64,000 bases of DNA from a virus (taxonomy: Duplodnaviria > Caudoviricetes): the IMG/VR virus record IMGVR_UViG_3300043104_000334. One strand, 5' to 3'. This document shows positions 11,691 to 55,505 of the stretch, piece by piece (within the stretch, counting starts at the first letter, position 1; the number at the start of each line of letters is the position of its first letter). Position numbers and translations under genes: made by a program. The notes beneath the pieces were generated by a model. The model was given only the letters and a program-made list of their open reading frames with translations. It searched no databases and had not been told where the DNA came from.

Positions 11691-11703
11691 CAATTATATA
11701 TGT
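11691..11703 (-). promoter_or_regulatory. Conserved promoter-like motif ACATATATAATTG (copy 1)
   Basis: Identical 13-mer at 21456 and 38611; all intergenic and upstream of operon starts; contains TATAAT. Confidence 0.75.
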
Positions 11704-11712
11704 CACGCTGAA

Positions 11713-12519
11713 TTATTTTTCTTCAGCATTAAGTTTATTCATTACCTCAACGAGATAACGAACAAATTGCTCTGATGTTACAATAGGTATACCACCACGT
11801 TTTGCTGCGTCTACCTTTCCTCTTGTTGTAGAGCCAGGCTCCCTGATAAGAAAGTCAACACCAGACTGTCTTTTTGTTTTCTGATGAAGAATTATAATTC
11901 TTCCTTTGCATGCCATATTAAGAGTATCAATAAAATCTTCTTTCGTCCTGTATCCATTTGGTGTTCCTGTAATCATTATAGTGAATACCGCTTCAGGACC
12001 TTTTGTAACTATTTCTTTAGGCCGCTTAACAAACTGAACATACTTAGCATTATCATAAATTTCATCTTTATTCTTATCAAGAACAGGACGCCACTTACCA
12101 TCGTACTTTTCATATAGTTCATCAAGTGTATAAATTCCGAGTGTCTTTGTTATGTTACCCCACTCGGAATCAACTCCCTCGAAACAGTGTATTCTCAAAA
12201 ACTGTTCCATTGTAACAAGTGGTTTGAAATTCCACAACTCGAACAACTGGAATGGAGATGTAGCATGTATAAGTGTAGCATCGTTTAAACACCCTGCAAA
12301 TCCAATTCCTTTTACGCCCAATAACTTCCTTGCAAAATCAGCCTTAGCTGCAACAAACCCATAACAATGCTCATTAGAACATTTTCTATTTGTGCACCTA
12401 AGGTCCTCATTATAATAGTTCATCATAGGTGAACCACAATGAGGACACTTAGATGGCAACTTGCCTTTTAACCAATCCGGTATATATGGGTCTTTATCGT
12501 GTTCAACCCAAATAGACAT
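11713..12519 (-). CDS. NAD-dependent DNA ligase, C-terminal half (Zn finger-HhH-BRCT)
   Basis: PSKCPHCGS...RKCSNEHC Zn finger; LGVKGIG HhH; BRCT TIMITG...VDFLI...KVDAAKRGGIPIVTSEQF; likely start MSIW at 12519. Confidence 0.85.
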   Translation of the reverse strand: MSIWVEHDKDPYIPDWLKGKLPSKCPHCGSPMMNYYNEDLRCTNRKCSNEHCYGFVAAKADFARKLLGVKGIGFAGCLNDATLIHATSPFQLFELWNFKPLVTMEQFLRIHCFEGVDSEWGNITKTLGIYTLDELYEKYDGKWRPVLDKNKDEIYDNAKYVQFVKRPKEIVTKGPEAVFTIMITGTPNGYRTKEDFIDTLNMACKGRIIILHQKTKRQSGVDFLIREPGSTTRGKVDAAKRGGIPIVTSEQFVRYLVEVMNKLNAEEK

Positions 12520-12535
12520 ACGTAATCTCCTTATC

Positions 12536-13585
12536 TTAGATAATTTCCAAGCTAGCACTCACAATGTAGATGTCATCCATGTCCTCAGTGGATTCAAAGT
12601 AATCATCACCAATAAGGTGCGTCCAGTAGGTATATGTTACAAGCACGTTACCACTATCATTAAGCTGATTCCATTCATCCGGCGTAACACTCACAAAGAA
12701 CCAATCCGCATGCTCATTGTCATCCAGATAAACCTTGATGAAGAGCTGGTTACCATAGACATCAATCTTCTCATAATCGAGGTTCTTCGTTTCTGTATAG
12801 GATGCACCAATCATTGTCCAATCAGTCATATCTGTACGCTCCGGGAGCGTAAGCCATGTCTGCGCTACATAGTGCTTGTATTCATCAGATGCTGTGTCAT
12901 ACAATGGTGCAATAGCCTCCTGAATCCAAGCGTCACGTTCCGCTTCAGCCTGAGTAATTAAATCAGCCGCCGGAACCTGCTGAGTTTGATAGGATTCAAT
13001 TTCATCACCAGTATAACCCGCAGCTCTTAACTGTGTAATCTCATCGGGTGTGTATAAGAATGTCTCTTCACCCACTGGATCGAGCCACTCGAGTCCCTCT
13101 GTACTTGTATCAACATCTGTACTAGAATCTCCACTTGGCTTAAGTAAGATATACCCGACGACAAGCACCGCTACAACAATAGCAGCAATACCAAATACAA
13201 GCGGTTTACTAAGCTGGAATCCACCGGAACCACCTGTCTGCGTCGTGTTGATGATAGTATCATTTGCAGTACCTTGCACAGTTTGCGTTTGCTGAGTCTG
13301 CTGTACCGGCTGAGCGGTAGAAGACGGCTGATAACTTTCAGTCTGCTGTAATACTACCTGCTGAGTGCTATCAGTAGCATTCGCTCTTGCACTCATCATC
13401 CTTTCACGGAGTTGCTCCTGCTGACTCTTATGAGATTGTTGAACTGGCTGACTCTGAATTGTCTGCTGTGTACTTGCAGCCCGCTGCGTATCTTCATTGT
13501 CTGGAACTTTATCACTACGCATCTGCTTCATAAGTTCACGCATCTTTTCTGCGTCTTCAGTAGTCATACCATTAAATCTATCCAT
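12536..13585 (-). CDS. Bitopic membrane protein (Gln-rich N-terminus, acidic outer domain)
   Basis: TM LVFGIAAIVVAVLVVGYILL. Confidence 0.75.
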   Translation of the reverse strand: MDRFNGMTTEDAEKMRELMKQMRSDKVPDNEDTQRAASTQQTIQSQPVQQSHKSQQEQLRERMMSARANATDSTQQVVLQQTESYQPSSTAQPVQQTQQTQTVQGTANDTIINTTQTGGSGGFQLSKPLVFGIAAIVVAVLVVGYILLKPSGDSSTDVDTSTEGLEWLDPVGEETFLYTPDEITQLRAAGYTGDEIESYQTQQVPAADLITQAEAERDAWIQEAIAPLYDTASDEYKHYVAQTWLTLPERTDMTDWTMIGASYTETKNLDYEKIDVYGNQLFIKVYLDDNEHADWFFVSVTPDEWNQLNDSGNVLVTYTYWTHLIGDDYFESTEDMDDIYIVSASLEII

Positions 13586-13586
13586 T

Positions 13587-17415: not shown

Positions 17416-17501
17416 CGTCCTCCACTTCGTCTTCCTCTTTTACGATAGTAAAACGCTTACCTTTGTCGATTAGTTCCTCAATAGAGCTATTCATGACATC
17501 A

Positions 17502-20615: not shown

Positions 20616-21115
20616 TATTCTTTTTCCTCCTTATACAATTTCATAGCTTCGACAATTTTCTTTATCATCTGTTCGTCATCCTCGTCTGTCTCAAATATGA
20701 CATGATATGATCTAGCATAAAACTCGATTGCCCATCTTGTTAGTGAGCCCCACTCTAACAGACCGGCAGAGTCCTTCATACCCTTTTTTGTGGACAGCTC
20801 ATCACAAACATCTCTGCAATCTTTGTAAAGTGTTTCTGCATAGGCACGAAGCTTTCTTCTTTCTGTGTACAGACCGAGCCTTACATCCATATAGAACTCA
20901 AGCCGAATTGCAGTTCCTTCAACGAGAGATTTCTTCATAGAGATTTCCCTTTCCTCGTCAGGATGTTCATTGTACAACTTTTCAAGTTCTTCACTCTCAT
21001 CTTTGAGAGTTTTAGCAAGGCTCTTTACATCTATGAATTCACACTCTTCGGTCTGTGCAAGCATTTTGTTGCATTCAGCTACAATTTGCTGAACCGAATT
21101 AACGACCTTACTCAT
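20615..21115 (-). CDS. Hypothetical helical protein
   Basis: 166 aa, coupled to neighbours. Confidence 0.7.
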   Translation of the reverse strand: MSKVVNSVQQIVAECNKMLAQTEECEFIDVKSLAKTLKDESEELEKLYNEHPDEEREISMKKSLVEGTAIRLEFYMDVRLGLYTERRKLRAYAETLYKDCRDVCDELSTKKGMKDSAGLLEWGSLTRWAIEFYARSYHVIFETDEDDEQMIKKIVEAMKLYKEEKE

Positions 21116-21438
21116 TGTTTATCTCCTTCATGATACTTATTTACTTTATTCATGTTTATCCTTTTCTCAAGCTCACTACAGGTTATATAGGTATCAGTAT
21201 AACCAACTACTCTTATACCCTTTGTCAAGTATTTACTCACCTGCAGTTTTCGTTCCATCGGAATTGATGTGTTCTTGAGAACACACATATTTATATAATA
21301 ACGTGTGTTGTGATAGATGGCATCTATATGCCTATATCTATCTGGCACCAATGTTTTAACATAGTTGCACAATTCTTCATAATTCTCTCGTAAAGCAATA
21401 ACTTTATCCAAATCGAACGAATCCGTTGCGATAATCAT
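21112..21438 (-). CDS. Hypothetical protein
   Basis: 108 aa, first gene after the promoter motif. Confidence 0.65.
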   Translation of the reverse strand: MIIATDSFDLDKVIALRENYEELCNYVKTLVPDRYRHIDAIYHNTRYYINMCVLKNTSIPMERKLQVSKYLTKGIRVVGYTDTYITCSELEKRINMNKVNKYHEGDKQ

Positions 21439-21455: not shown

Positions 21456-21468
21456 CAATTATATATGT
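21456..21468 (-). promoter_or_regulatory. Conserved promoter-like motif ACATATATAATTG (copy 2)
   Basis: Exact copy, 17 nt upstream of ATG 21438. Confidence 0.75.
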
Positions 21469-21487
21469 TATTAACATCTTCTTATAT

Positions 21488-21658
21488 TCAAAAGATTCTT
21501 AATAGGCCATACTGACACATATAATCTTCATCAATAGGAACGCCAATTGCTATGAGTGCATGCGTTAGTAAATCAAACAAAACAGCAATGCACACGATAG
21601 CAAACAGCATAGCAATGTACTCAAATACAAATGTAAGTACATCCTTAAATAATTTCAT
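21488..21658 (-). CDS. Small membrane protein (56 aa, not in ORF track)
   Basis: MKLFKDVLTFVFEYIAMLFAIVCIAVLFDLL...; start overlaps the Hsp70 stop (TGATG). Confidence 0.55.
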   Translation of the reverse strand: MKLFKDVLTFVFEYIAMLFAIVCIAVLFDLLTHALIAIGVPIDEDYMCQYGLLRIF

Positions 21659-26865: not shown

Positions 26866-27363
26866 TTAGTTGCTCCTATCAATAACATTGATTGTAACTG
26901 ATTCTTTATTTGTGCTGTATAATGTTTCGTATTGCAAGTCTAGAGTAAGTACATTGTACACCTCAGAAACTGGCACACTAATAATGACATCACCCGGACT
27001 AAGTACTCCAGATGCAATAACCTCACTGCCATTTACAAGTGAATACTCAACATCACATATGTTATCATCATCACTTGTTAAGTTAATGTACAGTAAATCG
27101 TTGTAATATGTCGACATGCTGTTGTAATATACCTTAACAGTTTCATTATGTATATACATAATATTAAGAGTCACACATGCAATAATGATAAGCATACACA
27201 ATACTTCCCATTTACGCCCAGGCTTCCTACAGTAAACATTTGTTACATTTGTTTCTGCATTATACAGCATTTTCTTTACTAGGGTTTTATCTGGTTGGTC
27301 GAGATAATTTGTACCCTTGTAGACATAATTTGGTCTACCACGTATAACTTTAGTCTTTACCAT
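26866..27363 (-). CDS. Bitopic membrane protein
   Basis: 165 aa, one TM then a beta-rich domain. Confidence 0.7.
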   Translation of the reverse strand: MVKTKVIRGRPNYVYKGTNYLDQPDKTLVKKMLYNAETNVTNVYCRKPGRKWEVLCMLIIIACVTLNIMYIHNETVKVYYNSMSTYYNDLLYINLTSDDDNICDVEYSLVNGSEVIASGVLSPGDVIISVPVSEVYNVLTLDLQYETLYSTNKESVTINVIDRSN

Positions 27364-27380: not shown

Positions 27381-27392
27381 CAGTTATATATG
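27381..27392 (-). promoter_or_regulatory. Variant promoter-like motif CATATATAACTG
   Basis: One mismatch within the 12-mer core; 17 nt upstream of ATG 27363, the same spacing as copy 2. Confidence 0.65.
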
Positions 27393-27417
27393 AAACATAA
27401 ACTAATTTACGTTCATT

Positions 27418-28413
27418 TTATTGAAAAAGCTCGTCTACTCCATAGGTAACACCATCAAGGTATAATGCTAGGTGTAAGTGCGGTCCCGTACATCTTGAAC
27501 CAGTACCACCTGACAATGCAATCGTTTGATACTGTTTAACTTCCTGTCCCTCTTTCACCTTAATCTCAGACAGATGACAAACAAGATATTTTACATTATC
27601 TCCACACTCAACCGTTACAAAATATCCAATAGTATCAGACCATCCACAGGATGATACTGTCCCGTTGAATAGTGCACCCACCTTTGTTCCAACTGCAGCT
27701 CTATAATCAGTACCTGCATGGAATCTAACTTCATTATGATTAAGAGGGTCAACTCTATAACCATATGTTGACGTTACATATTTATCATTTGGAAGAATCC
27801 ATTGAATATTCTTAACATCACCAAGATCATAAGCATCCATTGCTTCAACATATAAAGCTTTTGCATCTTCTAGCTGCTGTTCAACTGACGACAAATCACT
27901 CTCGATAGATTTATAAGAGTAATTCAATTTATAGTCATTAACAACAGAAAGCAGAGAATTCATATTTGATACATTGGATTTGTAAGAACCATCCAATTGC
28001 AATAAGGTATTAATATCAGCCGTAAGAACGTCGGAACTAATCTCACTTGCTATAGCATCATTCTTTGTTTTATAAACAGAGATACTGTCAAGTACATCGT
28101 TTAATTCTTCCTCTCTCTTAGCAATGTACTCTTCCATTATTGCATTATATTGTTCATTCATTGTCTGCTGAGCCTGCATTGATTGCAAGTCATTTTCAAT
28201 GGAATTGATTTCATCTTCAATATCTGATGTTACAGGACCACCTAATGTTAATCCATAGACATTAAGCAAGTCTTCTGTATTATCCGCATAAACCTGCATA
28301 GGTTGGGATGGTAGAATAGAAACTACCATCCCAATTACTATACTAGCCCTGTAAAGCTTCCTGCAGGCTGCGGAGCACATATGTGATTTCAGTATAGTCA
28401 CTACCGTCCTCAT
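27418..28413 (-). CDS. Secreted M23 metallopeptidase with coiled coil (peptidoglycan hydrolase)
   Basis: HAGTD (HxxxD) and GPHLH motifs; N-terminal signal; start MRTVV at 28413 with GAGGAGG RBS. Confidence 0.9.
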   Translation of the reverse strand: MRTVVTILKSHMCSAACRKLYRASIVIGMVVSILPSQPMQVYADNTEDLLNVYGLTLGGPVTSDIEDEINSIENDLQSMQAQQTMNEQYNAIMEEYIAKREEELNDVLDSISVYKTKNDAIASEISSDVLTADINTLLQLDGSYKSNVSNMNSLLSVVNDYKLNYSYKSIESDLSSVEQQLEDAKALYVEAMDAYDLGDVKNIQWILPNDKYVTSTYGYRVDPLNHNEVRFHAGTDYRAAVGTKVGALFNGTVSSCGWSDTIGYFVTVECGDNVKYLVCHLSEIKVKEGQEVKQYQTIALSGGTGSRCTGPHLHLALYLDGVTYGVDELFQ

Positions 28414-28669
28414 CTGTGTCCTCCTCACGTGTCATTGTATATCCGTCCACTTCCTCAGGCACCAACATAGCACCTTTTCGATTGTATCTCTGAAGCATAA
28501 GCATAGGCTCATTTGTATATACGTTGTAATATATCAATATGAGCGAATCGTCACCGGCCTCAAGTTCATCCCCAAAGATTTGAACGACATGTTTTTCCAT
28601 GTTAGATTTAAACACATAGTCACTGTTCATAATGTCGTCCCAATTCATTTTTAATAACTTATTCTGCAT
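28343..28669 (-). CDS. Hypothetical protein directly after beta'
   Basis: 108 aa, GGAGG RBS. Confidence 0.65.
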   Translation of the reverse strand: MQNKLLKMNWDDIMNSDYVFKSNMEKHVVQIFGDELEAGDDSLILIYYNVYTNEPMLMLQRYNRKGAMLVPEEVDGYTMTREEDTDEDGSDYTEITYVLRSLQEALQG

Positions 28670-28679
28670 TCGTAACCTC

Positions 28680-31600
28680 CTAAGATTCGACGTCGGAGCC
28701 TATGCCTATCCTTAATCCAAATGCGGCTCTTGTAATCGGATTTGACATTGAGTCATTAGGGTTCATCAAGATTGCCCTAGGCACATATGTATCCATATTT
28801 TCCATAAGGACACTCTCAAAGAAATCATTTTTATACTTTGGAAGAGCTTTCAAACCAAGTAACGTACGCATACTAAGCTGCTGCCCATTCACATCATTAC
28901 AAGCTTCAGGCCAAGTCAGGACAGAGCCAGCTTTATAATATGTCTTCTCACCAGTATGCAACGACTTGTAATCATAAACATTATTAGCATCAGCCCAAAG
29001 ATAGCATACAGACATTGAAGCTACGATTGTTTCAAAGTGCTTAAAGTTTACATCCTGCGTCATGAAAGTATCATATAGCTTTAATGCCAAATAGGATGCC
29101 GCTTTATCAAATCCCCTGTACCGTAACACTTCTTTCATGTTGAGATTACCCTGAATCTTCTGGAAAGAATCACCTTCGTATACATGGTCTTTTAATTTTG
29201 TCTGTGCATGAACGATAATCTTTTTGACAGCAAGTGAACGCATTCTTGATTTCACAATTCTGTCCTCAGGGTTATCAGGGATGATAAAGATTCTCTTGGT
29301 ACCATTACCAAGGTACTGCTCCCTTATTTTTCCATCCACCGGACTTATCATGTCGTACGTAAGAACTCCACGTTTACTCTTCCGTTTAGAAAAGTCATGA
29401 AGCTCAAAGTAATCTTCAATAAGCTGGAATGAAGATGTAAGGTTTGCATCAGTAACGACACCACCCTTTTGGAAGTTCTTCATTGTAAGCTGTGTACCCG
29501 GTTCACCAATAGCCTGTGCCGCAATAAAACCAACGGGTCTGCCGAGTTGTGGCTCATCTGTTCCAGCCGCAATATCCCTGCCATAGCACTTCTTGCAGAC
29601 AGGGCACTTGCAGTAAACTGGAGAACGCATCTCAACAATACCATCACCAGTCTCAACAAATTCATGTGTCTTAGGATTGATATATCCCCACGACTTATCA
29701 ATATGCTGGTAAGCCGCATTGATATTAGGGATGAATACAGACCTACTGTCTTGGCTGGTTCGATCAATACACCAACGACCAACGATAATCTTACTGAGAT
29801 ATTCTCTTGCAGCAAGCAACTGAGTTTTATACTCTGATGAATTCCTGAAAGCATCAACAACCTGCTTTGATGCGTTAGGCACACGAACGCCATACCTTGA
29901 AATCTGTGAATCATCAAGGAACGGTACAATGTCCTCAAGACTGAACTGCATACCCTCAGTTGTTTCACAATCTTCACTGAACACACTCATGATAGCGCCG
30001 GCATGTTCAAGCTTACGTGACATGTATCCCGGGTCAGCAGTAGCAAGTACCTTATCAGCAATACCCTTACGTGAACCATAAGCGGTAATGAATCCCTCGA
30101 GTCCTGTAAGATGACCTGAATAGCATCCGGCAATAATACTATTGAACGCTGTTGTATCATTCTTTTGTACACGACCCTTAAGACCAAATATCTGCATGAT
30201 ATTATTCTTGTCACCCTTACCACCGGACTTCATCATAGCGATATATCCATTATCATCTCCAAGGTTATTGACAAGATAATCTATAACTTCATCACGCAGT
30301 TCGTTCCACCGTTTATTGAAGTAGTTAGAGTATTCAGACTCAATCTCAATTCCAATGTTGACATACTCTTCACGCTCAAGCACATCTTTATTGAAATCAT
30401 CAATAAGTTGCTTTACGTGCTCCTTAACAGTGCTACTAACAATCGTTGAAATATTAGGCGGCCAAATCTTGGCAACTCTGAACCCAAGTTTTACAAGTCT
30501 GTTAATAGCATTTAAGAAGAAAGTCTTATTATTGCTATAAGCATTCTCCAAGATACTCGTAATCTGCTTCGCCTTGATTCCTTTACCCTTAAGGACCGTA
30601 GTAAGGTCCTGCGTATTGAAACCACAATAGATAGCATACTCCAATGCCGCTATTCCTGCTGTCTGCGTTCCAAACGGTGTCTCAACATTGTCATAGATAT
30701 TTATCTTCTGCTTACATACAGCATCATAGATATTTTTACCATGACCATTGTTCTGTGGAAGCCCCATCGATTTCGCGATATTATTCACATCAGCTTGTGA
30801 GAGATTCCTTGATTTTGTATTAGCCGTTGCTGTACTACACATCCATAGACCATAAATGATTTCATGCCGCATAACGATGGTGATTTCACCATTCTTTGGA
30901 TACCGGTAGTTGTTCGTAAAGGACATACGTTCACGTATCTCTTTATTTGCTTCAGCCGTCTGTGCCATATTAAAATGCATCTGGTCACCGTCGAAGTCAG
31001 CATTAAATGGCATAACGACAAGTGGGCTAAGCACAATCGCGTCACCATCAACCGGCTTAATCTTAAATGCTTCTATGCCTAGATAGAACAATGTAGGTTG
31101 TCTACCAGTAGGTCCAAACCTCGGTTCATATTCAAGCCATCTCTTAAGCAAGTCTTTATAAACCAAACCATCTACATCAGTTTTAGTAGAAGTAGATAAT
31201 CTTGCCAGATTCTTCTTTGTTACTTTCTTCGACAGGTCTGGGGCTTCATTACGGAGCCATTGTATAACACTTGGCTCTGCAATCTTATAGAGCATACTCC
31301 ATGGTATTCCTATTGTATCAATAGGCATCTCTGGGTCACAGGTAATTACTGTACGTCCCGAATAATCAATACGCACGCCCTGCATTCTACCACGCATGAG
31401 TCCCTCTTTACCAGTTATTGTATCTGAGATGGATTTATAATCCTTTAATCTTTGTTGCTGAATGACTTGGTCATCTCCAATAAAGATATTCCGGATATAC
31501 TGTACAACCTCTCTGTACTTATTTAACACAGCATAACAGGTTGCGTTTTGCTGCTGTTCAAGGATATCACGCAGTTCAGAGTTAGCATTTACGAGCTTGT

Positions 31601-32489
31601 TGTACTGCGATGTGATGACATCAACACGACCATCAATCGTAGGTCTATAACCCTCAGGCAGTACGAATATGTAACTAAGAATCTGACTTTTAAGTGCTTC
31701 CTTACCATCTCCATCAATCATAGAACTGAGCAAGCTAAGGATTGGAAATTGCTGCATGTTTGTTATATCATAGTTCTCAGTGTTGTCCAACATCTTAGCG
31801 TATACATCATCAATCCTATCTTCTGGCAAATCACCGCTTTCAAGGTCAATGAAATAGGTTCCAAATAACCAACCGTTTTCAATAGATACCCTACCAGAAA
31901 TAATATCTTCAGGGTCTACCGTAACGATAGGTCCAAGATTCAAAGTGCCTGCTTCATAGGCTGCTTTTTCGTCTTTCGATAAAACAGGTACAACATATGT
32001 GCCAATAAGCTTGTTACACAAGGAATCCCAAACATCTACCTCATCCAAAAGTTTCACAAGCAACTCCGCTCCAAATACATACCGCTCCCGGTCAAACATA
32101 GATGTACCAATATCTGCATTGGATACCATAGCTCCTACCTCATTATCATAAACAACATTTCCGTTTATGATTCCGGATATCATGTCTGAGCTTAATCCAA
32201 GTACAGTTCTCCATACCGGTGCTCCCCTACCTGCTAAGAAAGGATTAAGGACTCTGCATGTGAGGTCAATATACCCGACCCTTGTATATTTATCCTCGTA
32301 TATCTTATCATTGCAGTTAGGGTCATCAGAATGGTCTGCCTTTCCGAAGATTGAGGATGACACAACGTTGTGCTCATAATTATACGCTGTGTCAAGCCGC
32401 ACCATAGGAGCCGACGTAATTGACTGTCGTTCACTAGGGGCCATTCGCTTCTTATCATCTTTGTTTATTGGTCTAACAGAAATACTCAT
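28680..32489 (-). CDS. rpoC: DNA-directed RNA polymerase beta' subunit, divergent
   Basis: FNADFDGDQM catalytic loop; GKEGLMRGRMQGVRIDYSGRTVI; RQPTLF; bridge helix GSRKGIADKVLATADPGYMSRKL; C-terminal Zn site CKCPVCKKCYG; trigger loop IGEPGTQLTM. Confidence 0.95.
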   Translation of the reverse strand: MSISVRPINKDDKKRMAPSERQSITSAPMVRLDTAYNYEHNVVSSSIFGKADHSDDPNCNDKIYEDKYTRVGYIDLTCRVLNPFLAGRGAPVWRTVLGLSSDMISGIINGNVVYDNEVGAMVSNADIGTSMFDRERYVFGAELLVKLLDEVDVWDSLCNKLIGTYVVPVLSKDEKAAYEAGTLNLGPIVTVDPEDIISGRVSIENGWLFGTYFIDLESGDLPEDRIDDVYAKMLDNTENYDITNMQQFPILSLLSSMIDGDGKEALKSQILSYIFVLPEGYRPTIDGRVDVITSQYNKLVNANSELRDILEQQQNATCYAVLNKYREVVQYIRNIFIGDDQVIQQQRLKDYKSISDTITGKEGLMRGRMQGVRIDYSGRTVITCDPEMPIDTIGIPWSMLYKIAEPSVIQWLRNEAPDLSKKVTKKNLARLSTSTKTDVDGLVYKDLLKRWLEYEPRFGPTGRQPTLFYLGIEAFKIKPVDGDAIVLSPLVVMPFNADFDGDQMHFNMAQTAEANKEIRERMSFTNNYRYPKNGEITIVMRHEIIYGLWMCSTATANTKSRNLSQADVNNIAKSMGLPQNNGHGKNIYDAVCKQKINIYDNVETPFGTQTAGIAALEYAIYCGFNTQDLTTVLKGKGIKAKQITSILENAYSNNKTFFLNAINRLVKLGFRVAKIWPPNISTIVSSTVKEHVKQLIDDFNKDVLEREEYVNIGIEIESEYSNYFNKRWNELRDEVIDYLVNNLGDDNGYIAMMKSGGKGDKNNIMQIFGLKGRVQKNDTTAFNSIIAGCYSGHLTGLEGFITAYGSRKGIADKVLATADPGYMSRKLEHAGAIMSVFSEDCETTEGMQFSLEDIVPFLDDSQISRYGVRVPNASKQVVDAFRNSSEYKTQLLAAREYLSKIIVGRWCIDRTSQDSRSVFIPNINAAYQHIDKSWGYINPKTHEFVETGDGIVEMRSPVYCKCPVCKKCYGRDIAAGTDEPQLGRPVGFIAAQAIGEPGTQLTMKNFQKGGVVTDANLTSSFQLIEDYFELHDFSKRKSKRGVLTYDMISPVDGKIREQYLGNGTKRIFIIPDNPEDRIVKSRMRSLAVKKIIVHAQTKLKDHVYEGDSFQKIQGNLNMKEVLRYRGFDKAASYLALKLYDTFMTQDVNFKHFETIVASMSVCYLWADANNVYDYKSLHTGEKTYYKAGSVLTWPEACNDVNGQQLSMRTLLGLKALPKYKNDFFESVLMENMDTYVPRAILMNPNDSMSNPITRAAFGLRIGIGSDVES

Positions 32490-32492
32490 TGT

Positions 32493-33338
32493 TTATACCA
32501 ATCCCTTCCCGTAATCATGTAAAATCATTTCGAGTGCATGCTCATTTATCTCAGTCTTGTACACAAGTCTTAAGCCGTCAAGTCCTGAAACCGGAACTGC
32601 ACAAGTAAAGAACTTTGATAAATCATACACTGTTCTACATGGCATTATGTTGTCATACCCTTCATCAAACAATGCCTGCGTATCTGCATAATCCCAGTAC
32701 CCAGTACCTTTCTTGATGAACATGAATGTCGTGGCTACACCTGCACCCTCTCGTTTTAAATCGCAAATCTTAACGTGTGGCAACAACATCTCTGGATAAC
32801 TCGCTGGCTCAACATAAGAGTTCTGTGTATACCAAACAGTATCCGTTCCAAGATAGGGAACCCTATCAGAATCCGGTGGTCCCTCATAATCACACATAAG
32901 ACTACCGATTTCTTCTTTTGGCAACTTGAGAGCATTTGCGTGCCTTGTGCTAGCACGCATTGATGGCGAACGACCATGTCCCTCATCGAATTCCTTATTG
33001 TTCACAACCTCTTCATCAACACCGTAGAAGCAACCTTTTTCAGGGTTGATTCCACCATTCTCCACAGGAATGATATTACTCATAAGCATACCAAGTTCAA
33101 TGAGTGACATCCCATAGATATCATTCTGTCTGAACAATGAATGCTGATGCACATCGTCCCATCCATGATAGAACCCTATCACCCTCCAGTGTGGAATATT
33201 GTAGTCAAGCAAATCAGTTGAGAATCTGTTATAAACGATCATCAACTCATCTTTACTCAGCTGCTTGCTAAACTGTACAATACCATTTGATACCGTGCAG
33301 CCGGCAAAGCATTCCCCAACTAAAGATATTTCATTCAT
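32493..33338 (-). CDS. rpoA: Probable RNA polymerase alpha subunit (NTD only), highly divergent
   Basis: Colinear matches to alpha-NTD: NRFSTDLLDYNIPHWRVIGF ~ NSLRRILLSSLPG.AV; HSLF..DIYGMSLIEL ~ HEFSTIPGV.EDV.EI; LLPHVKICDL ~ ILNPDLHIATL; IKKGTGY ~ V.RGRGY; IMPCRTVY ~ IPIDSIY; DGLRLVYKTE ~ DKLTLEVWTD. Lies between beta and beta'; start MNEIS at 33338 (ATGA overlap). Confidence 0.7.
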   Translation of the reverse strand: MNEISLVGECFAGCTVSNGIVQFSKQLSKDELMIVYNRFSTDLLDYNIPHWRVIGFYHGWDDVHQHSLFRQNDIYGMSLIELGMLMSNIIPVENGGINPEKGCFYGVDEEVVNNKEFDEGHGRSPSMRASTRHANALKLPKEEIGSLMCDYEGPPDSDRVPYLGTDTVWYTQNSYVEPASYPEMLLPHVKICDLKREGAGVATTFMFIKKGTGYWDYADTQALFDEGYDNIMPCRTVYDLSKFFTCAVPVSGLDGLRLVYKTEINEHALEMILHDYGKGLV

Positions 33339-34018
33339 GAAATTCCTCCCGTAATAATGTACCCAATTGCAACCGCAGCAATAGCTACAGCCCAAGCAGC
33401 ATAGGTACAAGATTTATTCTTTGTACGAAGTGTCATAAATCTAATGTTTCTCTTCGTGATTGGAAATAAGACTGGACATCCCTCTACAGTAAGCATATCA
33501 GCAAACAGATGTGAGCAATACCCAACACACAACCCAAGCACACTATACTTCCATAAAGGGAAGTCTGATACACCAATTGCAAAGTAAAGCAATACTGGTA
33601 CTAATAATGTGTGCATTAAACCCCTGTGTCTTGTTGCCCACTGGAATGTTTTGCTATTATAAATAAACTTCTTTGCAACGGCAATTATAATAAATCCAAT
33701 AGCAATAAGCATAAGCTTATCTGCTTCAATACCATAGTTCTTGAATCCAAGCATTGTAACTATTGCAAGTATTCCTGCAATGAGTACACCGGCTAAGATA
33801 AGTAAATTCAATGTCTTTGTCGTAAGGTTTGTAATCACCTTACGCTTTCTACCAATCTTAGTCATATCGTGGTCAATATCAGGAAGCATACATCCAACTG
33901 CCGAAGCAGGCAGGATAAGCAACCCATAAGGGTCACCATATCCTTTTGACACGATACACGCACCTGCTATTCCAAATCCTATTCCAACTACTTTATGTTG
34001 TACACCTGTCATAGCCAT
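33335..34018 (-). CDS. YdjM-like membrane-bound metal-dependent hydrolase
   Basis: MTGVQH, LPDIDH, HRGLMHT, SHLFADMLT..G motifs; TM segments. Confidence 0.85.
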   Translation of the reverse strand: MAMTGVQHKVVGIGFGIAGACIVSKGYGDPYGLLILPASAVGCMLPDIDHDMTKIGRKRKVITNLTTKTLNLLILAGVLIAGILAIVTMLGFKNYGIEADKLMLIAIGFIIIAVAKKFIYNSKTFQWATRHRGLMHTLLVPVLLYFAIGVSDFPLWKYSVLGLCVGYCSHLFADMLTVEGCPVLFPITKRNIRFMTLRTKNKSCTYAAWAVAIAAVAIGYIITGGIS

Positions 34019-34079
34019 ACCTTTCTAGAACTACAACGTTCCACGTTATTTTGCATGAGACAGATAGTACCTCATACAA

Positions 34080-37000
34080 TTATTTCTGAAAACTTCCAAG
34101 GATTAGATTTGTTGCATTTTCAAACTCGTCATCTTCTTGACTTGCAACTGTGTCCTCGACAGCTTCAGAAGTATTACTCTTCACAGAGTTCTGCTTTTTG
34201 TTCGTATTCTTCTTGTACTGAACACTTGCCTGCTGAATAACACTAGGCTTCCAGTGCGCAAGCTGAGCACCATTATCCTTGTCAAGTGGAATGAACTCAC
34301 CATCATTAGGTTCACACATTACACCAAGTGCAAGGAAAGAATACAGAAACTGCGTAACTGCACGCCGCTGTCCGGGTGAGTCAATATGGTACTGCTTCCT
34401 GAGTTCGCCCGGGAAATATGTATCAATGTTGAAGTTATCTCTGGCAATGGCGTTATCACATCTTTCGTTTGTCAATTCATGTATATATGCAGATGCGCCA
34501 TAAGCACATAGCGCGTCAATCTCCATTGTACCAAATCTCTGTCCACCACCATTTGATGAACCGTGTGTAGGCGCATCTGTCATCTCACCATAAGGTTCCC
34601 AAATGTTCTGTCCGCCTCTTGCATGAATCTTCTTATGAGACTCCTGTATAAGCTTGAACACATGCAGATAAGCAACCACGATTTCTGTCTCAGTCATGTT
34701 TCCATCGTTATCCGGTAACATAACTTTTGTTGTGCCACGCTCATTGAAACATCCTGCATAAATACGAATGTCGTTGATAACCTCAACTAGATGTTGCTTG
34801 AAAGACTCAACGTGCTTTATGTGACTTTCATTAAGCAAATCACCATGTCTCAAGAATACAGCATTTAGGTCACCGGTAGAATTCATAAGGTCAACAGTAA
34901 GGGACATCAACATAGCAATCTCTTCCTCTGAAATACAGTTGTACGCATCTGATGAAAGTTTAAACTTGCACACATGAGAAAACAGCCCTGTATGAGATTC
35001 CTTTATCTGGCCAACATTCATACGTGAACCTACACCAAGTGGATTAAGACAAATATCCAATGGAAAACCATTTGCAAGACGTGGCATGTTAGATGTCTTT
35101 TCTTTCTTACTAAGAACACCTTTGTTACCATGTCGGTTAGACATCTTGTCACCACCACTAAACGGGTCGATAGAGACCGTATTCAGTGTCAAGCCATAAT
35201 TACCTGCTCTGTGTTCTGACTTGATAGAATCATATTTTTCATAGAATCCATAAGCCTTAGAAAGCGGAATATCTTTCTTCTTACTCTCCATGAATCGCCT
35301 ATCAGAGTAAGCAACACTAATTGAGCTACTAAGTTCCGGAGACATCCATCTACCGTTGTTTGATTTGCTCATACGGTAAGACCGAGTAGAGTTTGGGTTA
35401 CTTGTAAAGTCTTCCTTGTTGATTCTATAGGATGCAAGTCTGTTACACATTGATTCTGAAATATGCGCACCATCCTCATAATTGTAACCATCACAGATGT
35501 AACCAACAAGCGCATTACATCCAAGAGTTAAGATACCATTCTCAGAGATAAAATTTGAAGATACGAGCATCTGACCCTTATGGAATCTCTGCCCTACTTC
35601 AACGAGCACTTTCATCTTTGTTACAGAATAACCGCTATCAAAGTATTCATCAAACTGATAAATGGTACCATCAGAAATATCCTGTGAATCATACCGAACC
35701 GCAAGATGATACTTCTCTTCACGCCAGTTATATTCACATGTAACAACTGTACCGCTATCTTTTGCAATAATTCCAAACTTGTCGTTAAGCCATGCAAACT
35801 GCTCATAAGCACTCGTGATAACATCTGGTTCTTCTGCAAATACCAATCCCTTAGCCTGCTTCTCCTGTGCAACAGCAAAGATAGCACGCGCCGCATCATT
35901 ACTACTCATATACGGAATCGTGGATGACGCATAACTAAGCGACTGACTAGCATTGACATTGACGAAATCAACTTGACTGATAGGTCTGTATGCAAACGTA
36001 GATTTCTCGACAGAGTTTCTGGTGGGTACACGACACTGAACAATCTTAGTGTTATCCTTTACAACGTAATCACTGCCAAACTCAAGCGAGCAGATATCCG
36101 CAATTACATACCGCTCTTCATCCCGGCTAGTAAGAGGAATCTTCTTGTCAGTCTTAATAACTGACTGATTGCCAAGATGCTGTACTCTGTAATACAACGT
36201 AGACATCTTACCATCTGTAGAGATAACAGAGTCACAGCAGGAATTGTAAACTGTACCCATCTTCTGTGACTGCGGAATTTCATAAGCATCAATCTTCGCA
36301 TAAGAACCGATTGCAATTTCACGCTGAGAATCCGCAATGGAATGCTTGTTCGCCGTATAGACATTCACTTTTGTGCAAGCAGACTGATATGCAATAGGAT
36401 TATGGAGATTATCACCCTGCAACCGAACAATACATTTTGCTTCATCCCTAAGGTACTTCCAGAAGTTCTTTGTAAACGGATAGAATTCATTGTCGATTAA
36501 ATCGCGGTCAAGGAAATTCTGTCTCTTACCTTTATAGATTTCCTTGAACTTCCTATTCATTTGTTTGAATCCCTCACGGACTGCATAGCAGAATGCACGA
36601 TGGTACTGTTCCTCAATAGGAATTAAAACCTTTCTGAAACCTGCATCTGCATTTACAATTCGATCAATCCATTTGCCCTCAAACAACTTCACACAGAATG
36701 ATTGAAGTGCCATAAAGTCATACGTAGTGTAAGCACCATTAGCCGGTACAAAATCCTTGTCACAATTAAGGTAATACCAGTCACCATGTGGCTTACCAAT
36801 GTCTTTACCCCGGAACTGTCTGTTAGAGATAATCTCTTCGTAGAAGTTAAGAACTCTTACCTTTCCGCCGGACCTCTTGTCGCTCACCTTAATGGATTCC
36901 TTTCCATAAGCAACAATGACATCAAGCATATCGCTTGTAAGCTGTGTGCCTGATTCATAGATAATTGGTACCGGAAGTTTATCGTAGAACTTGGATGTAT

Positions 37001-38117
37001 ACATTCCATGCTCTTCCGGGAAATACTTTCGCAGCGACTTGGAAATTCTAAGACCTACAGGCGCAAACGGAATAAAGATATCTTCCGCCAGATAGAAACC
37101 CTCGATGTTTGGCACATACTTGATATAGAGTTTATAGACTCCATCGGCATTAAACAACCGAATCATATTACTGTCAACTACTTCACCAGCATGCGCAAGG
37201 ATTCTACCGTTTACAAGTTCCGACTCAACATCTCTTGCAAGTACCTCTCCAACAGCACGGTCAAGTGACAACAACTCATTCAAATCATCCCGAATAGCCG
37301 TATTGTCATAAGAGTCATCACCCTCACCATTCTCTTTGATACGCGTAAGAGTAAGCCTGGGAACGAGTTGTTTCTTGTAGTCGATACCATTTACGCTAGC
37401 AGAGTTAGCAACAATTCCACCAAGTCTCTGCTCTTTCTCTTCTTCATCCTTAAACATGTTAACAATGAAGAAGTTAGCAAACTCTTTAAAGAGTTCTTCT
37501 GGCTCATAGCCCTCATCCTTTGCCATTGCCACGATAAGGTCAAGCAACGTGTACTTAGTCTTAGACGACTTTCCACTCCGGTCAGACATCCGAATTTTTA
37601 ATGCGCTTGCATTATCATCAATCCAGATAGACCGAGTACCATTCTTAATCTTAAGACAAGCCGCCTTTGCAGTATTGTCATTTGCTTCGAACGATACCGT
37701 AGGCTCCTGCTCAAGCATATGTATGAATGCATACTGCTGGTTATCATACTCGATAATACCGTTCTCATAGACATGAGGAAGATTCATAACAGTGACGTCC
37801 TGAGCCTTATCAGGATTGAATCCCGGAATGTCAAACCTTACTGTAACATGATGTGTAAGGTCATTGTACTTTCCCGGGTCTACCTGTTTCACCTTGATTC
37901 TTTCAGCACTCGTTTTGAGCATATCAGGATTGCACTTAATAGCATTGATGAGAGCCGGCATGAACACGTTGAGTACATCCTCAACGGCCCGCTTATCCGT
38001 ATACTTCTTAAATGACTCGTAGACGGGACTTGGCTTCATGTCCGGTATAAGACTAGGTCTTGCAAGTTCATTCTGGTACGCGTATAATATATTTTTATTC
38101 TTGTCATAATCCAGCAT
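34080..38117 (-). CDS. rpoB: DNA-directed RNA polymerase beta subunit, divergent
   Basis: GYNYEDG, GDKMSNRHGNKGV, LNPLGVGSRMNVGQIKE, KIHAR, GGQRFGTMEIDAL..YGA. Confidence 0.95.
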   Translation of the reverse strand: MLDYDKNKNILYAYQNELARPSLIPDMKPSPVYESFKKYTDKRAVEDVLNVFMPALINAIKCNPDMLKTSAERIKVKQVDPGKYNDLTHHVTVRFDIPGFNPDKAQDVTVMNLPHVYENGIIEYDNQQYAFIHMLEQEPTVSFEANDNTAKAACLKIKNGTRSIWIDDNASALKIRMSDRSGKSSKTKYTLLDLIVAMAKDEGYEPEELFKEFANFFIVNMFKDEEEKEQRLGGIVANSASVNGIDYKKQLVPRLTLTRIKENGEGDDSYDNTAIRDDLNELLSLDRAVGEVLARDVESELVNGRILAHAGEVVDSNMIRLFNADGVYKLYIKYVPNIEGFYLAEDIFIPFAPVGLRISKSLRKYFPEEHGMYTSKFYDKLPVPIIYESGTQLTSDMLDVIVAYGKESIKVSDKRSGGKVRVLNFYEEIISNRQFRGKDIGKPHGDWYYLNCDKDFVPANGAYTTYDFMALQSFCVKLFEGKWIDRIVNADAGFRKVLIPIEEQYHRAFCYAVREGFKQMNRKFKEIYKGKRQNFLDRDLIDNEFYPFTKNFWKYLRDEAKCIVRLQGDNLHNPIAYQSACTKVNVYTANKHSIADSQREIAIGSYAKIDAYEIPQSQKMGTVYNSCCDSVISTDGKMSTLYYRVQHLGNQSVIKTDKKIPLTSRDEERYVIADICSLEFGSDYVVKDNTKIVQCRVPTRNSVEKSTFAYRPISQVDFVNVNASQSLSYASSTIPYMSSNDAARAIFAVAQEKQAKGLVFAEEPDVITSAYEQFAWLNDKFGIIAKDSGTVVTCEYNWREEKYHLAVRYDSQDISDGTIYQFDEYFDSGYSVTKMKVLVEVGQRFHKGQMLVSSNFISENGILTLGCNALVGYICDGYNYEDGAHISESMCNRLASYRINKEDFTSNPNSTRSYRMSKSNNGRWMSPELSSSISVAYSDRRFMESKKKDIPLSKAYGFYEKYDSIKSEHRAGNYGLTLNTVSIDPFSGGDKMSNRHGNKGVLSKKEKTSNMPRLANGFPLDICLNPLGVGSRMNVGQIKESHTGLFSHVCKFKLSSDAYNCISEEEIAMLMSLTVDLMNSTGDLNAVFLRHGDLLNESHIKHVESFKQHLVEVINDIRIYAGCFNERGTTKVMLPDNDGNMTETEIVVAYLHVFKLIQESHKKIHARGGQNIWEPYGEMTDAPTHGSSNGGGQRFGTMEIDALCAYGASAYIHELTNERCDNAIARDNFNIDTYFPGELRKQYHIDSPGQRRAVTQFLYSFLALGVMCEPNDGEFIPLDKDNGAQLAHWKPSVIQQASVQYKKNTNKKQNSVKSNTSEAVEDTVASQEDDEFENATNLILGSFQK

Positions 38118-38129
38118 AACACTGCTCCT

Positions 38130-38552
38130 TTATACTAAGTTGAATTTGCGAAGTAAGTCTTCGTCAAGCTCCTCCATTTCATCAGCATCATACTCACCCA
38201 TGTTTGTCACTTCTGCAGGCAGTGAAACCGGAACGTTATCACCCTCACAAAGAGGTATAGCAGTGATATCACCAAGGTCATCAACAACCAAGATGATTTT
38301 CTGACCTGCACACACTACCGGCAAAGCAACCTCCCAGTCATCTCCACACTCTGAGATAATGGTCGAGAAATCTTTCTCCGTATTCATGAAGTTACTGAAA
38401 TCTTCAATACCAGAAATCTCAATAACCTTGAGTCCGCCGTAAGCCGTAAAGGCAACCTGTACAAAGTCACCACTAGCCTTTGCGAAGATGCTTTCATCGT
38501 CCTCACCCATGTTCGCAAACCCTACTACCTGTGTCCATTCATTTCTTAGCAT
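38130..38552 (-). CDS. Acidic hypothetical protein, first gene of the RNAP operon
   Basis: 140 aa, AGGAGG RBS. Confidence 0.7.
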   Translation of the reverse strand: MLRNEWTQVVGFANMGEDDESIFAKASGDFVQVAFTAYGGLKVIEISGIEDFSNFMNTEKDFSTIISECGDDWEVALPVVCAGQKIILVVDDLGDITAIPLCEGDNVPVSLPAEVTNMGEYDADEMEELDEDLLRKFNLV

Positions 38553-38610
38553 AATAATAATGCCCTCCTTATTATTGTTTCTGGAAAGAATAGTTCTATA
38601 ACTCTTCTTT

Positions 38611-38623
38611 CAATTATATATGT
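38611..38623 (-). promoter_or_regulatory. Conserved promoter-like motif ACATATATAATTG (copy 3, RNAP operon)
   Basis: Exact copy, 58 nt upstream of ATG 38552. Confidence 0.75.
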
Positions 38624-38663
38624 GCTCAGTCAAGTTTCTTCTTCAGAAAATTAACTGAGCACA
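38621..38663. repeat. Inverted repeat abutting the RNAP-operon promoter
   Basis: TGTGCTCAGT (38621-30) / ACTGAGCACA (38654-63) with further imperfect inner pairing. Confidence 0.7.
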
Positions 38664-38666: not shown

Positions 38667-38699
38667 TATTTTACAGGAGGAAAACCCTCCTGTAAAATA
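38667..38699 (-). terminator. 14-bp perfect hairpin after the giant adhesin gene
   Basis: TATTTTACAGGAGG-N5-CCTCCTGTAAAATA. Confidence 0.7.
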
Positions 38700-48069: not shown

Positions 48070-48071
48070 AA

Positions 48072-48970: not shown

Positions 48971-49028
48971 TTTCTTCGCTCTCCTTACAAATTATAGGTT
49001 GATATAAGTTATTAAAATAAGTTATATC

Positions 49029-49048
49029 AGAGGGACCGAAGTCCCTCT
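49029..49048 (-). terminator. Hairpin after the putative major pilin (cUUCGg loop)
   Basis: Minus strand AGAGGGAC-TTCG-GTCCCTCT. Confidence 0.7.
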
Positions 49049-50155: not shown

Positions 50156-50156
50156 T

Positions 50157-50720: not shown

Positions 50721-50755
50721 ATGCGTACCCCTTTTGGCAATGTAACATAACTACA

Positions 50756-52756: not shown

Positions 52757-52784
52757 TCTTATTTCTCCTTATACATAACTATAA

Positions 52785-53222: not shown

Positions 53223-53225
53223 AGT

Positions 53226-53570: not shown

Positions 53571-53588
53571 GCGTAATCATCCTCCAAT

Positions 53589-53981
53589 CTAGGTCCTGTT
53601 TATCTTTGTCCAATCAACATTTTCACCAGCCTTGTAATAGTAATAATCACTAAGCTGTTTCTGATTGTATTTCACAGTAACATTGTCAGGATGTTCTTCC
53701 GTCCGATATGTTATAACGAACGTAATCTCTTCATTGTTGTTATCCTCAAACGCATAAGTAACATTGTACTTGAAGAATTCACTACTTGAGCCATCACCCT
53801 CATCAGTACATTCATAAGGAAGCTCCTGAACATATTTAACAGTAGCATCCTTATATACTGACTCCAACATACTAGTACTTGGTATCAAATAGGAATAAAT
53901 TAAAATTCCGAAAAATGATGAAAAGAAGCATATTGTGAAAGTTCTCATTCTCTTTCCAGAAGTACTACCTTTTCTTAACAT
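53589..53981 (-). CDS. DUF3592-like membrane protein, paralog 1
   Basis: TM then YNVTY...HPDNVTVKYNQ. Confidence 0.6.
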   Translation of the reverse strand: MLRKGSTSGKRMRTFTICFFSSFFGILIYSYLIPSTSMLESVYKDATVKYVQELPYECTDEGDGSSSEFFKYNVTYAFEDNNNEEITFVITYRTEEHPDNVTVKYNQKQLSDYYYYKAGENVDWTKINRT

Positions 53982-54033
53982 ATCTTTAGTCTCCTCTCTA
54001 AGTTTCCTTAGACATACGTATTTATGCTAGACC

Positions 54034-54059
54034 TACAGGAAACAATTTTGTTTCCTGTA
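54034..54059 (-). terminator. Hairpin after 54075-55436
   Basis: TACAGGAAACAA-NN-TTGTTTCCTGTA. Confidence 0.65.
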
Positions 54060-54074
54060 AGCTGTCATCCTTAT

Positions 54075-55436
54075 TTAAACTACACAGATTAAATCCCACT
54101 CTGACTTCTTTACCTGATGCTTAAGACTTGCAATCAGTGGACGATTCACAGACATTCCCATAGAGTCGATATCTTCCTGCAAGGCAATATACAAAGCTGC
54201 AGATACTGGCGTAGGCACATCACCAGAACTTTCAGCTGTGTCAAAATCAGATATGGCTTTCTTTGTTTTCTGATAAGTGCCAACTTCTGTCATGATAGGA
54301 GCAATCTGTATATAGAGTTTCCTACATGCAAGAGCAGACTTTAAGTCTCCGTTAATGTGCGCAATTTCTTTACGCTTCTTGTTAATGTCTTCATACGTAA
54401 TTGTAAGATACTCTTCTTTCTTCTCAGCCTTCCCATCAACAGTAACACCGATTTCTCCAACCGGAATAGCATCCCAGTCTTCTTTATTGACGCTGTATTT
54501 CATGGCATCAACAACAGGTGCATTCTTGGTTGTGCGCAGTATAGATATAGCCTCATCAAATGCTGCGATTACATCAGCAGCCATCTCCGGTACAGGTGTA
54601 TCTCTCCAGGCATCTCTAACTTTATCAGCAGTAAATGACCGTCCGAATTTATCGAATAATCCGGAAATCATATCGTACACCTTGCAGTATGCTTTTGCAC
54701 TGTCACTTTCATCGTCAAGAGCCTTAAGTCCATCAATCTTAAGATTGATTTCTTTAAGTGTAAGAACAAACTGTTCTTTCTCAGGCATAGCAACAGTTTT
54801 TACGTTTGCTGCATTCAAGAGCATCCGACGTTTCTCAGCATCTTTCTCGGTCATAAGTCCATTGTCAACGAGAGCCTGCAGATAGATTTCTTCTGCATTC
54901 TCAACACCATTGTCCCGATCATCATAATACTGTCTGCGGAGGACATCACCGAGTCTTTCCTTGGTATCCGTTGTATTCATAATCTCTCCGTAACGAGTCT
55001 TGAACTTAGCACTCTCCTCAGGTGTAAACTCGTAACCCTTTGCAATAAGCTGGATGTACAACTCAGCCGCACAGAGTTTAAGCTCCTTGTATTTCTCAAT
55101 CCATGTATTTGAACCGACAAGATAGCCAACATTAGCATCTACACGTTTTGCCCAGTTACCGACACCCATAATGAGGTTGGCTGCACATAGCTGCTTAAAG
55201 TAAGCTATGTCAGACTTAATTTCCTCAAACTCATCATGCATCTTTGTAAACTCTTCATCAGAGTAACATCCGAGGTTTAAAGCCTCCTTAAGAACATCAG
55301 TACCAATGTTCTCGCCATTCTTAATTTTCATAAGAGCCTGCCCTACAAGTTCAGCGCATCTCTTATCAAATATAAGATTACCGAAAGTTACTTCATCGTC
55401 TCTTAATTTGAAATTGAAACTAGGATTCCAACCCAT
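54075..55436 (-). CDS. Hypothetical protein with duplicated C-terminal domain
   Basis: 453 aa; two ~105-aa repeats ending MKYSVNKEDWDAI and LKHQVKKSEWDLI. Confidence 0.75.
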   Translation of the reverse strand: MGWNPSFNFKLRDDEVTFGNLIFDKRCAELVGQALMKIKNGENIGTDVLKEALNLGCYSDEEFTKMHDEFEEIKSDIAYFKQLCAANLIMGVGNWAKRVDANVGYLVGSNTWIEKYKELKLCAAELYIQLIAKGYEFTPEESAKFKTRYGEIMNTTDTKERLGDVLRRQYYDDRDNGVENAEEIYLQALVDNGLMTEKDAEKRRMLLNAANVKTVAMPEKEQFVLTLKEINLKIDGLKALDDESDSAKAYCKVYDMISGLFDKFGRSFTADKVRDAWRDTPVPEMAADVIAAFDEAISILRTTKNAPVVDAMKYSVNKEDWDAIPVGEIGVTVDGKAEKKEEYLTITYEDINKKRKEIAHINGDLKSALACRKLYIQIAPIMTEVGTYQKTKKAISDFDTAESSGDVPTPVSAALYIALQEDIDSMGMSVNRPLIASLKHQVKKSEWDLICVV

Positions 55437-55493
55437 GTTTTAAACCCTCCATGTAAGAATACTCAGCAGGTTAAGAGACTCATCTCTCCCTTA

Positions 55494-55505
55494 CACTGAT
55501 ATATG
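55494..55505 (-). promoter_or_regulatory. Variant promoter-like motif CATATATCAGTG
   Basis: Two mismatches to the core; 57 nt upstream of ATG 55436. Confidence 0.45.

Follow-up and report, generated by a model that had tools for sequence, protein, structure and literature searches.

A conserved two-box promoter-like motif at the operon heads of giant mobile elements that encode their own RNA polymerase

Gene content of the element and the motif sites

The 64,000-nucleotide (nt) stretch of DNA analysed here (IMG/VR record IMGVR_UViG_3300043104_000334; hereafter, the window) belongs to a mobile element of about 200 kb that encodes its own RNA polymerase (RNAP), and the subject of this analysis is a motif that recurs at the heads of its operons, including the one for the polymerase itself. 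The window has a G+C content of 39% and a uniformly negative GC skew, and essentially all of its long open reading frames (ORFs) lie on the minus strand. Apart from the RNAP subunits, it encodes a family A DNA polymerase, an FtsK-like ATPase, a split NAD-ligase, and Hsp70-, MreB- and CpaB-like proteins. Comparison with phages and plasmids yielded no match at the DNA level, relatives of the element were found neither among the GTDB species genomes nor in IMG/VR, and a literature search returned no description of the element family or of the motif.

The RNAP operon (27418..38552, minus strand), which was delineated with Pfam, with AlphaFold2 and Foldseek for the alpha subunit, and with alignments of beta and beta', starts with the gene for a 140-amino-acid (aa) acidic protein (38130-38552) that is followed, 12 nt further on, by the beta gene (34080-38117). 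The remaining genes, all on the same strand, encode a YdjM-like protein (33335-34018), a 282-aa alpha N-terminal domain without the C-terminal domain (32493-33338), beta' (28680-32489), a 108-aa protein (28343-28669) and an M23 peptidase (27418-28428). The 282-aa protein, which was considered and rejected as a candidate sigma factor, is predicted to adopt the fold of the RNAP alpha N-terminal domain (AlphaFold2 predicted local distance difference test score (pLDDT) 79.6, predicted template modelling score 0.83; Foldseek E-value of 1e-7 to many RNAP alpha chains). The element therefore encodes a complete core polymerase consisting of beta, beta' and the alpha N-terminal domain.

Both large subunits are unsplit and very divergent, with beta being only about 25% identical to cellular RpoB. 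We identified about 45 close relatives of beta (44-80% identity) on metagenomic contigs of 150-270 kb; beyond these, the protein search recovered only cellular RpoB. In alignments with the E. coli and B. subtilis sequences, the beta flap falls about 37 residues short of its B. subtilis counterpart, and no flap-tip helix can be recognised. The beta' subunit has lost its N-terminal Zn-binding domain (about 43 residues) and has a shorter lid; it retains divergent clamp helices. Residues 1 to about 600 of beta showed no match to Pfam lobe or protrusion domains, and in a profile comparison with the beta chains in PDB, the best matched stretches start near profile position 600, which corresponds to residue 505-525 or so of the Firmicute beta subunit.

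The motif was originally recognised in the window as three exact copies of the 13-mer ACATATATAATTG (11691-11703, 21456-21468 and 38611-38623; sites A, B and C, respectively) and two variants, CATATATAACTG at 27381-27392 (site D) and CATATATCAGTG at 55494-55505 (site E). All five were recovered at these positions on the minus strand, and both variants proved to be genuine members of the motif; 100 dinucleotide-preserving shuffles contained no copy of the 13-mer. In all five sites, the alignment revealed the word TGAA exactly 19 nt ahead of CATATAT, and a search of the window with the pattern TGAA-N19-CATAT returned seven matches on the minus strand, five of which are sites A to E, and none on the plus strand. 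With this upstream box included, the sites span, on the minus strand, 11691..11725 (A; TGAA 11725-11722, CATATAT 11702-11696, TG 11692-11691), 21456..21490 (B), 38611..38645 (C), 27381..27415 (D, with the variant TCATATATAACTG) and 55494..55528 (E, with the variant TCATATATCAGTG).

Each site stands at the head of an operon, shortly before an ATG that is preceded by a Shine-Dalgarno sequence; the distances given here between the end of the motif and this ATG come from the ORF map and the sequence. Site A is located 27 nt upstream of the gene for a 124-aa protein (11289-11663), in the direction of the FtsK-like gene, and site B lies 17 nt upstream of the gene for a 108-aa protein (21112-21438), which opens an operon reaching the family A DNA polymerase. 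Site C heads the RNAP operon, 58 nt from the start of the gene for the acidic protein; just upstream of it, a G+C-rich terminator-like hairpin (38673..38693, minus strand), with counterparts at the equivalent place in relatives of the element, closes the operon of a 2455-aa gene. Site D is found 17 nt upstream of the gene for a 165-aa protein (26866-27363), which is followed by the gene for a ligase adenylation domain, and site E lies 57 nt upstream of a 453-aa gene (54075-55436), with the pseudopilin-like genes and the 2455-aa gene lying further downstream.

The motif-headed operons are roughly 5-17 kb long, lie on the single coding strand and include, in addition to the RNAP genes, those for a DnaB-like helicase, a primase-like protein, PolA and ligase. 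The original prediction placed all copies between genes, in the coding orientation, 17-58 nt before an ATG. The orientation and the distances hold, and the right-hand (CATATAT) boxes are intergenic in all five sites, but the upstream boxes of two sites overlap ORF ends: in site A, TGAA lies within the final codons of the preceding ORF, and in site B, its TGA also terminates a small membrane ORF located upstream.

The 29 kb that adjoin the window upstream, available on contigs that are 100% identical to it in the overlap, contain two further copies of the motif. One is in an intergenic region before the operon of a primase-Zn-ribbon gene; the other occupies the extreme end of a gene and precedes a block reaching RNase H and the DnaB-like helicase. 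The motif was not found in the part of this region that resembles type IV secretion system (T4SS) and lysozyme genes (contig L096, positions 1-9000, and contig L095). The genes in this part code for a TraG/VirB4-like P-loop protein, two phage-lysozyme-like proteins, an M15 peptidase, NADAR/PARG/DarT-like proteins and a GGDEF protein, a set that looks like a conjugation or secretion module.

Conservation of two boxes among related elements

To assess the conservation of the motif, we compared the window with the RNAP neighbourhoods (about 24 kb each) of seven relatives (L001-L007) whose beta subunits are 79% to 44% identical to that of the element and in which the genes follow one another in the same order. 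We examined two syntenic gaps, namely, the one from the giant ORF to the small acidic genes and beta, and the one from the M23 peptidase gene to the 165-aa gene; in the relatives, both gaps contain the two boxes with an identical spacing. Orthologues of site C are present in L001-L006, with a degenerate copy (CAAATAT) in L007, and orthologues of site D were identified in all seven relatives, the copy in L003 being a variant (CTATATAAT).

Altogether, 18 sites from eight elements, with beta identity down to 44%, were aligned. In the upstream box, T1, G2 and A3 are invariant and A4 is present in 17 of the 18 sites; in the downstream box, C24 is found in 16 sites, ATATA in all 18 and T30 in 17. 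These are followed by one A/T position, A32 (18/18), a position with any base, T34 (18/18) and G35 (17/18), and the spacer between the boxes is 19 nt long in every site. The mean information per position is 1.46 bits for TGAA and 1.45 bits for CATATAT, compared with 0.18 bits for the 19-nt spacer, and orthologous sites share 93-97% identity in the boxes, whereas their identity of 32-35% in the spacer is near random. Given that the spacers have been randomised to this extent (about 33% identity), neither chance nor shared ancestry can explain the conservation of TGAA. The conservation of the boxes is thus the phylogenetic footprint of two apparently protein-contacted boxes, and the motif, as judged from its sequence, is a conserved, family-wide two-box promoter-like element.

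The consensus can be written as (A/T-rich)-Y-TGAA, 19 unconserved nt, CATATAT-(A/T)-A-N-TG-(A/T)AA or, in short form, YTGAA-N19-CATATATwAnTG. At positions 34-37, TG followed by A/T and A recreates a TGAA-like word 33 bp from the upstream TGAA, that is, about three helical turns away. A motif acting at the RNA level was considered and rejected, the spacer being both unstructured and unconserved.

A weight matrix built from the 13 sites of the seven relatives only, when run over both strands of the window, identified exactly the five sites (A, 22.9 bits; B, 28.9; C, 29.8; D, 23.7; E, 29.4), with the next-best match at 9.1 bits; in 100 first-order Markov simulations of 64 kb, the mean of the maximum scores was 8.5 bits and the highest was 19.2. 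Conversely, the matrix derived from the seven sites of the element itself gave its top ranks in the relatives to the syntenic gaps that precede the RNAP and ligase operons. A search of all of IMG/VR with the strict pattern retrieved 41 stretches, mostly with single matches and a few with tandem repeats, a scatter indicating that no known viral group uses the motif as a promoter. The original proposal of a recurrent operon-head signal, with one copy before the RNAP operon, is borne out by these comparisons: the signal is specific for orientation and for the element, and is kept in the relatives.

Proposed promoter class and candidate readers of the boxes

Reading the boxes as nTGAAn and CATATA leaves a spacer of 18 bp, the geometry of promoters for the sigma-70 family. 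Two boxes at a fixed spacing in all 18 sites, on the coding strand and, in the window, 17-58 nt before the start codons, are the features of a bipartite promoter, and we favour the view that the 13-mer is the downstream box of what appears to be the main promoter class of this element family. The original prediction was of a promoter with a -10 box only. It was right in that TATAAT is not preceded by a TTGACA-like hexamer at a distance of 17 bp, but it overlooked the YTGAA box at an invariant 19 nt from CATATAT, and the motif cannot be described as -10-only. The associated argument, which linked the lack of a -35 box to the loss of the flap tip and the Zn finger, falls with the presence of a second box, although both losses are real, as the subunit alignments show.

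The motif is unlike the housekeeping (sigma-A) promoters of the host. Although a TATAAT is embedded in some of the sites, its last position, equivalent to T(-7), is A in three, C in four, G in four and T in seven of the 18 sites, and this free variation implies that it is not a sigma-A -10 element; TATAAT was accordingly rejected as the conserved -10 register. No register retains the equivalents of A(-11) and T(-7) together, nTGAAn is located 22 bp before TATAAT, and positions -15/-14 are AT rather than TG. In a scan of positions 1-60000, the numbers of sigma-70-type matches in three 20-kb stretches (73, 70 and 57) were close to those in shuffled sequence (69.5, 67.2 and 68.8, respectively), and no match coincided with a motif site.

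Several known systems share part of this architecture. The sigma-E and sigma-K mother-cell promoters of Clostridia and Bacilli likewise pair two boxes across a constant distance of about 18 bp, and their -10 box starts with CATA; examples from C. difficile are the spoIIID promoter, ATA-N16-CATATATA, and the sigK promoters CATATAAT (P2) and CATATTAT (PMC3789822). The CATATAT(A/T)A of the element conforms to the -10 consensus of this class (CATAcAnT or CATAnnnTA), but its -35 box is YTGAA, and the positions 16-18 bp upstream, where ATA (sigma-E) or AC (sigma-K) would be expected, are not conserved. Furthermore, the conserved block of the element is 5 nt longer (A-N-TG), and the motif resides on a mobile element with its own core RNAP and no sigma factor detected in about 93 kb.

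To our knowledge, Firmicutes lack sigma-32, the factor whose promoters provide the closest parallel for the upstream box. The heat-shock promoters of E. coli consist of CTTGAA, about 14 nt and CCCCATnT (PMC10216364). CTTGAA matches the YTGAA of the element, and the -10 box of the element includes CAT-n-T; in contrast, the CCCC run is missing, the four positions before CAT being unconserved, and the distance between TGAA and CAT is 19 nt in the element compared with 17 nt in dnaKp1.

Among phages, SPO1 uses the sigma factors gp28 and gp33/34 on the host core to read phage-specific promoter classes. Promoters of this type, including those of jumbo phages without RNAP genes (PMC7598289), are likewise bipartite, with a non-sigma-A consensus that is repeated before operons, but in these phages sigma homologues can be recognised and a private core enzyme is absent. 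Both the virion and the non-virion RNAPs of phiKZ and AR9 are, like the polymerase described here, reduced bacterial-type enzymes, and their promoters, like the motif, are element-specific. These jumbo-phage promoters have a single box near -10 or overlapping the start (an AT-rich 10-mer, TATG or AACA-N6-TA) (PMC7598289), whereas the element has a second invariant box 19 nt upstream; in addition, its beta and beta' genes are unsplit and a gene for the alpha N-terminal domain is present. Because the jumbo-phage promoters have one box only, the parallel with them that the original prediction implied breaks down.

The search for a factor that could recognise the boxes covered the window proteins (8 large and 20 further proteins with Pfam; the 51 remaining ones with Pfam, NCBIfam and PHROGs, using pseudo-alignments), as well as the Pfam lists for the approximately 29 kb upstream of the window and for the RNAP loci of the seven relatives, and no sigma-70-family domain was detected in any of these. 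Profile searches of four conserved uncharacterised families near the RNAP genes against PDB sequences returned nothing relevant, no significant structural match was obtained for the 165-aa protein with AlphaFold2 and Foldseek, although its structure, a beta-sandwich with one long helix, is confidently predicted (pLDDT 84), and the 108-aa protein had no match in the ESM Atlas. Thus, by both profile and structure searches, the conserved uncharacterised proteins encoded beside the RNAP genes are not sigma-like.

That the motif is the cognate promoter of the element RNAP, as originally proposed, is plausible. In our assessment, it is probably, though by no means certainly, read by the alpha2-beta-beta' core of the element together with a specificity subunit that has escaped recognition; we favour this reading because the motif is the dominant operon signal, a complete private core is maintained and no sigma factor was found. 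A precedent is provided by the non-virion RNAPs of jumbo phages, which use a fifth subunit without sequence similarity to sigma factors (phiKZ gp68, AR9 gp226) (PMC7598289). Under this scenario, both boxes would be contacted by a dedicated specificity factor other than the housekeeping sigma of the host, and this factor would work with the stripped-down core of the element. The resulting circuit would be shielded from the host, and also autocatalytic, given that this promoter heads the RNAP operon as well. As a whole, this combination of a main promoter class, a dedicated specificity factor and, by extension, the element core as the enzyme is the explanation that we adopt with modest confidence. 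A more elaborate picture, in which a plasmid-like giant element of gut bacteria maintains private transcription, with an alpha N-terminal domain dimer, a beta without a flap tip and a Zn-less beta' reading a bipartite promoter via a subunit outside the sigma-70 family, is a tentative one.

Several observations weigh against assigning the boxes to the element RNAP. The -35/-10 geometry is canonical, such as a normal host core produces when its flap tip docks region 4 of sigma, and the element beta has no recognisable flap-tip helix, nor does beta' have the Zn-binding domain; together, these facts argue for a host core with an alternative sigma factor. The -10 box is almost a clostridial sigma-E/K box, and if the element RNAP were the sole reader, its own operon would face a start-up problem after transfer to a new cell. 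Moreover, the search for a specificity factor extended over about 93 kb, that is, about half of the element, and the seed pattern demanded TGA and TAT, such that part of the conservation of these triplets in the relatives reflects ascertainment; neither the synteny nor the remaining invariant positions were prescribed by the pattern. Finally, it is from sequence that we infer both promoter function and the start site.

The alternative that survives best, although we consider it unlikely, is that the host core reads the boxes with an alternative sigma factor, either an unrecognised one encoded by the element or a host group-3 factor of the sigma-E/K kind, and that the element RNAP serves another promoter class in a phage-like cascade. 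Such an arrangement would account for the nTGAAn, 18 bp, CATATA layout in the face of a beta without the docking helix, for the closeness of the -10 box to the C. difficile boxes cited above and for the resemblance of the -35 box to the sigma-32 box CTTGAA (PMC10216364), and would pose no start-up problem for a self-dependent RNAP operon. Room for a second promoter class is left by the operon heads that lack the motif (gaps 49086-48965 and 54080-53976 and the T4SS/lysozyme region of L096). Set against these points are the lack of a sigma-70-family gene in the regions searched, the lack of conservation where the sigma-E and sigma-K -35 boxes (ATA, AC) would be required, TGAA being conserved instead, and the possibility that the hosts do not sporulate.

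A considerably less probable alternative is that the boxes form an operator for an element-encoded regulator and overlap another promoter, with TGAA at positions 1-4 and TG(A/T)A at positions 34-37 (A36 in 10 and A37 in 14 of the 18 sites) serving as two half-sites separated by the helical phasing described above. The fixed position of the sites relative to gene starts is compatible with this possibility, but the downstream repeat is not a perfect copy, conservation is highest in the asymmetric CATATAT that separates the repeats, no alternative promoter detectable by the sigma-70-type scan is conserved around the sites, and their strict orientation and position after terminator-like hairpins fit a promoter. 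It is highly improbable that the motif is a -10-only promoter with a functionless TGAA: single AT-rich boxes of about 10 nt near -10 do serve as early promoters of jumbo-phage virion RNAPs (PMC7598289), and the element RNAP has lost the flap tip and the Zn-binding domain, yet TGA is kept in every site and the fourth A in all but one, at an invariant distance across randomised spacers. Equally hard to credit is an ordinary host sigma-A promoter acting through the TATAAT that is perfect in three window sites, considering that the hexamer varies at its sixth position, the conserved bases lie outside it, neither TG at -15/-14 nor a TTGACA-like box at 16-18 bp accompanies it, and the sigma-70 scan does not report the sites.

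Should the element core, devoid of the flap tip and the Zn finger, indeed read both boxes, this would amount to a novel way for a bacterial-type RNAP to recognise its promoters, namely, recognition of a -35-like box without the docking of sigma region 4 on the flap tip that all known bacterial holoenzymes use, and the element would possess a naturally orthogonal promoter/polymerase pair. If the host core reads the boxes instead, the element carries or exploits an unrecognised sigma factor, and the role of its private polymerase becomes the question. In either case, the motif offers a testable handle on gene control in the uncharacterised elements of about 150-270 kb that encode their own RNAP: the sites define the operon map, and the 35-bp sequence can be employed as bait for the specificity factor and as a template for transcription by the element enzyme compared with the host enzyme.

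Predicted start site, leader hairpins and neighbouring features

With the boxes read as nTGAAn and CATATA, the conserved TG falls at about -2/-1, which would place the transcription start at or just after TG. Directly after this TG, RNAfold predicts a stem-loop in the leader of the RNAP operon (38585..38610, minus strand), and a stem-loop begins at the same point in L001 (9516-9543), L002 (9496-9523) and L003 (about 8589-8613). The stems differ in sequence and yet stay paired (AAAGAA/TTCTTT, AAAGAAAA/TTTTCTTT, AAAGTA/TACTTT and AGATA/TATCT), being maintained through two-sided changes in these three relatives, and the loop of the hairpin carries GTTATAGA. In L004-L006, a hairpin is located 8-18 nt further downstream. 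The position of the stem-loop agrees, as an indirect indication, with a start at TG rather than 7 nt after TATAAT. Stabilisation from the 5' end or a role in autoregulation is possible for the leader hairpin.

The RNAP operon opens with one to four copies, depending on the element, of fast-evolving genes for very acidic proteins of about 130-170 aa with a pI of about 4; besides the single gene in the window, these genes occupy 8648-9954 in L003, 9163-9986 in L004 and L005, and 7205-9960 in L006. Searches of protein families and PDB gave no meaningful match for these proteins, and a role as a DNA mimic or an inhibitor of a host factor is a guess. The 165-aa protein at the head of the site D operon contains an invariant N-terminal RGRP (AT-hook-like) motif.

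An operon head without the TGAA/CATATAT motif is marked by another conserved feature. The inverted repeat GATATR-N16-YATATC (49001-49028, minus strand) lies before the first pseudopilin-like gene, after a terminator-like hairpin (49029-49048), and is conserved in L001 (about 465-492) and L002 (about 303-330); it may function as an operator or belong to a second class of promoters. Just upstream of site E, a tRNA-Met gene (CAT; 56129-56203, minus strand) is located between three small basic ORFs (56210-56914) and an HD-domain gene.

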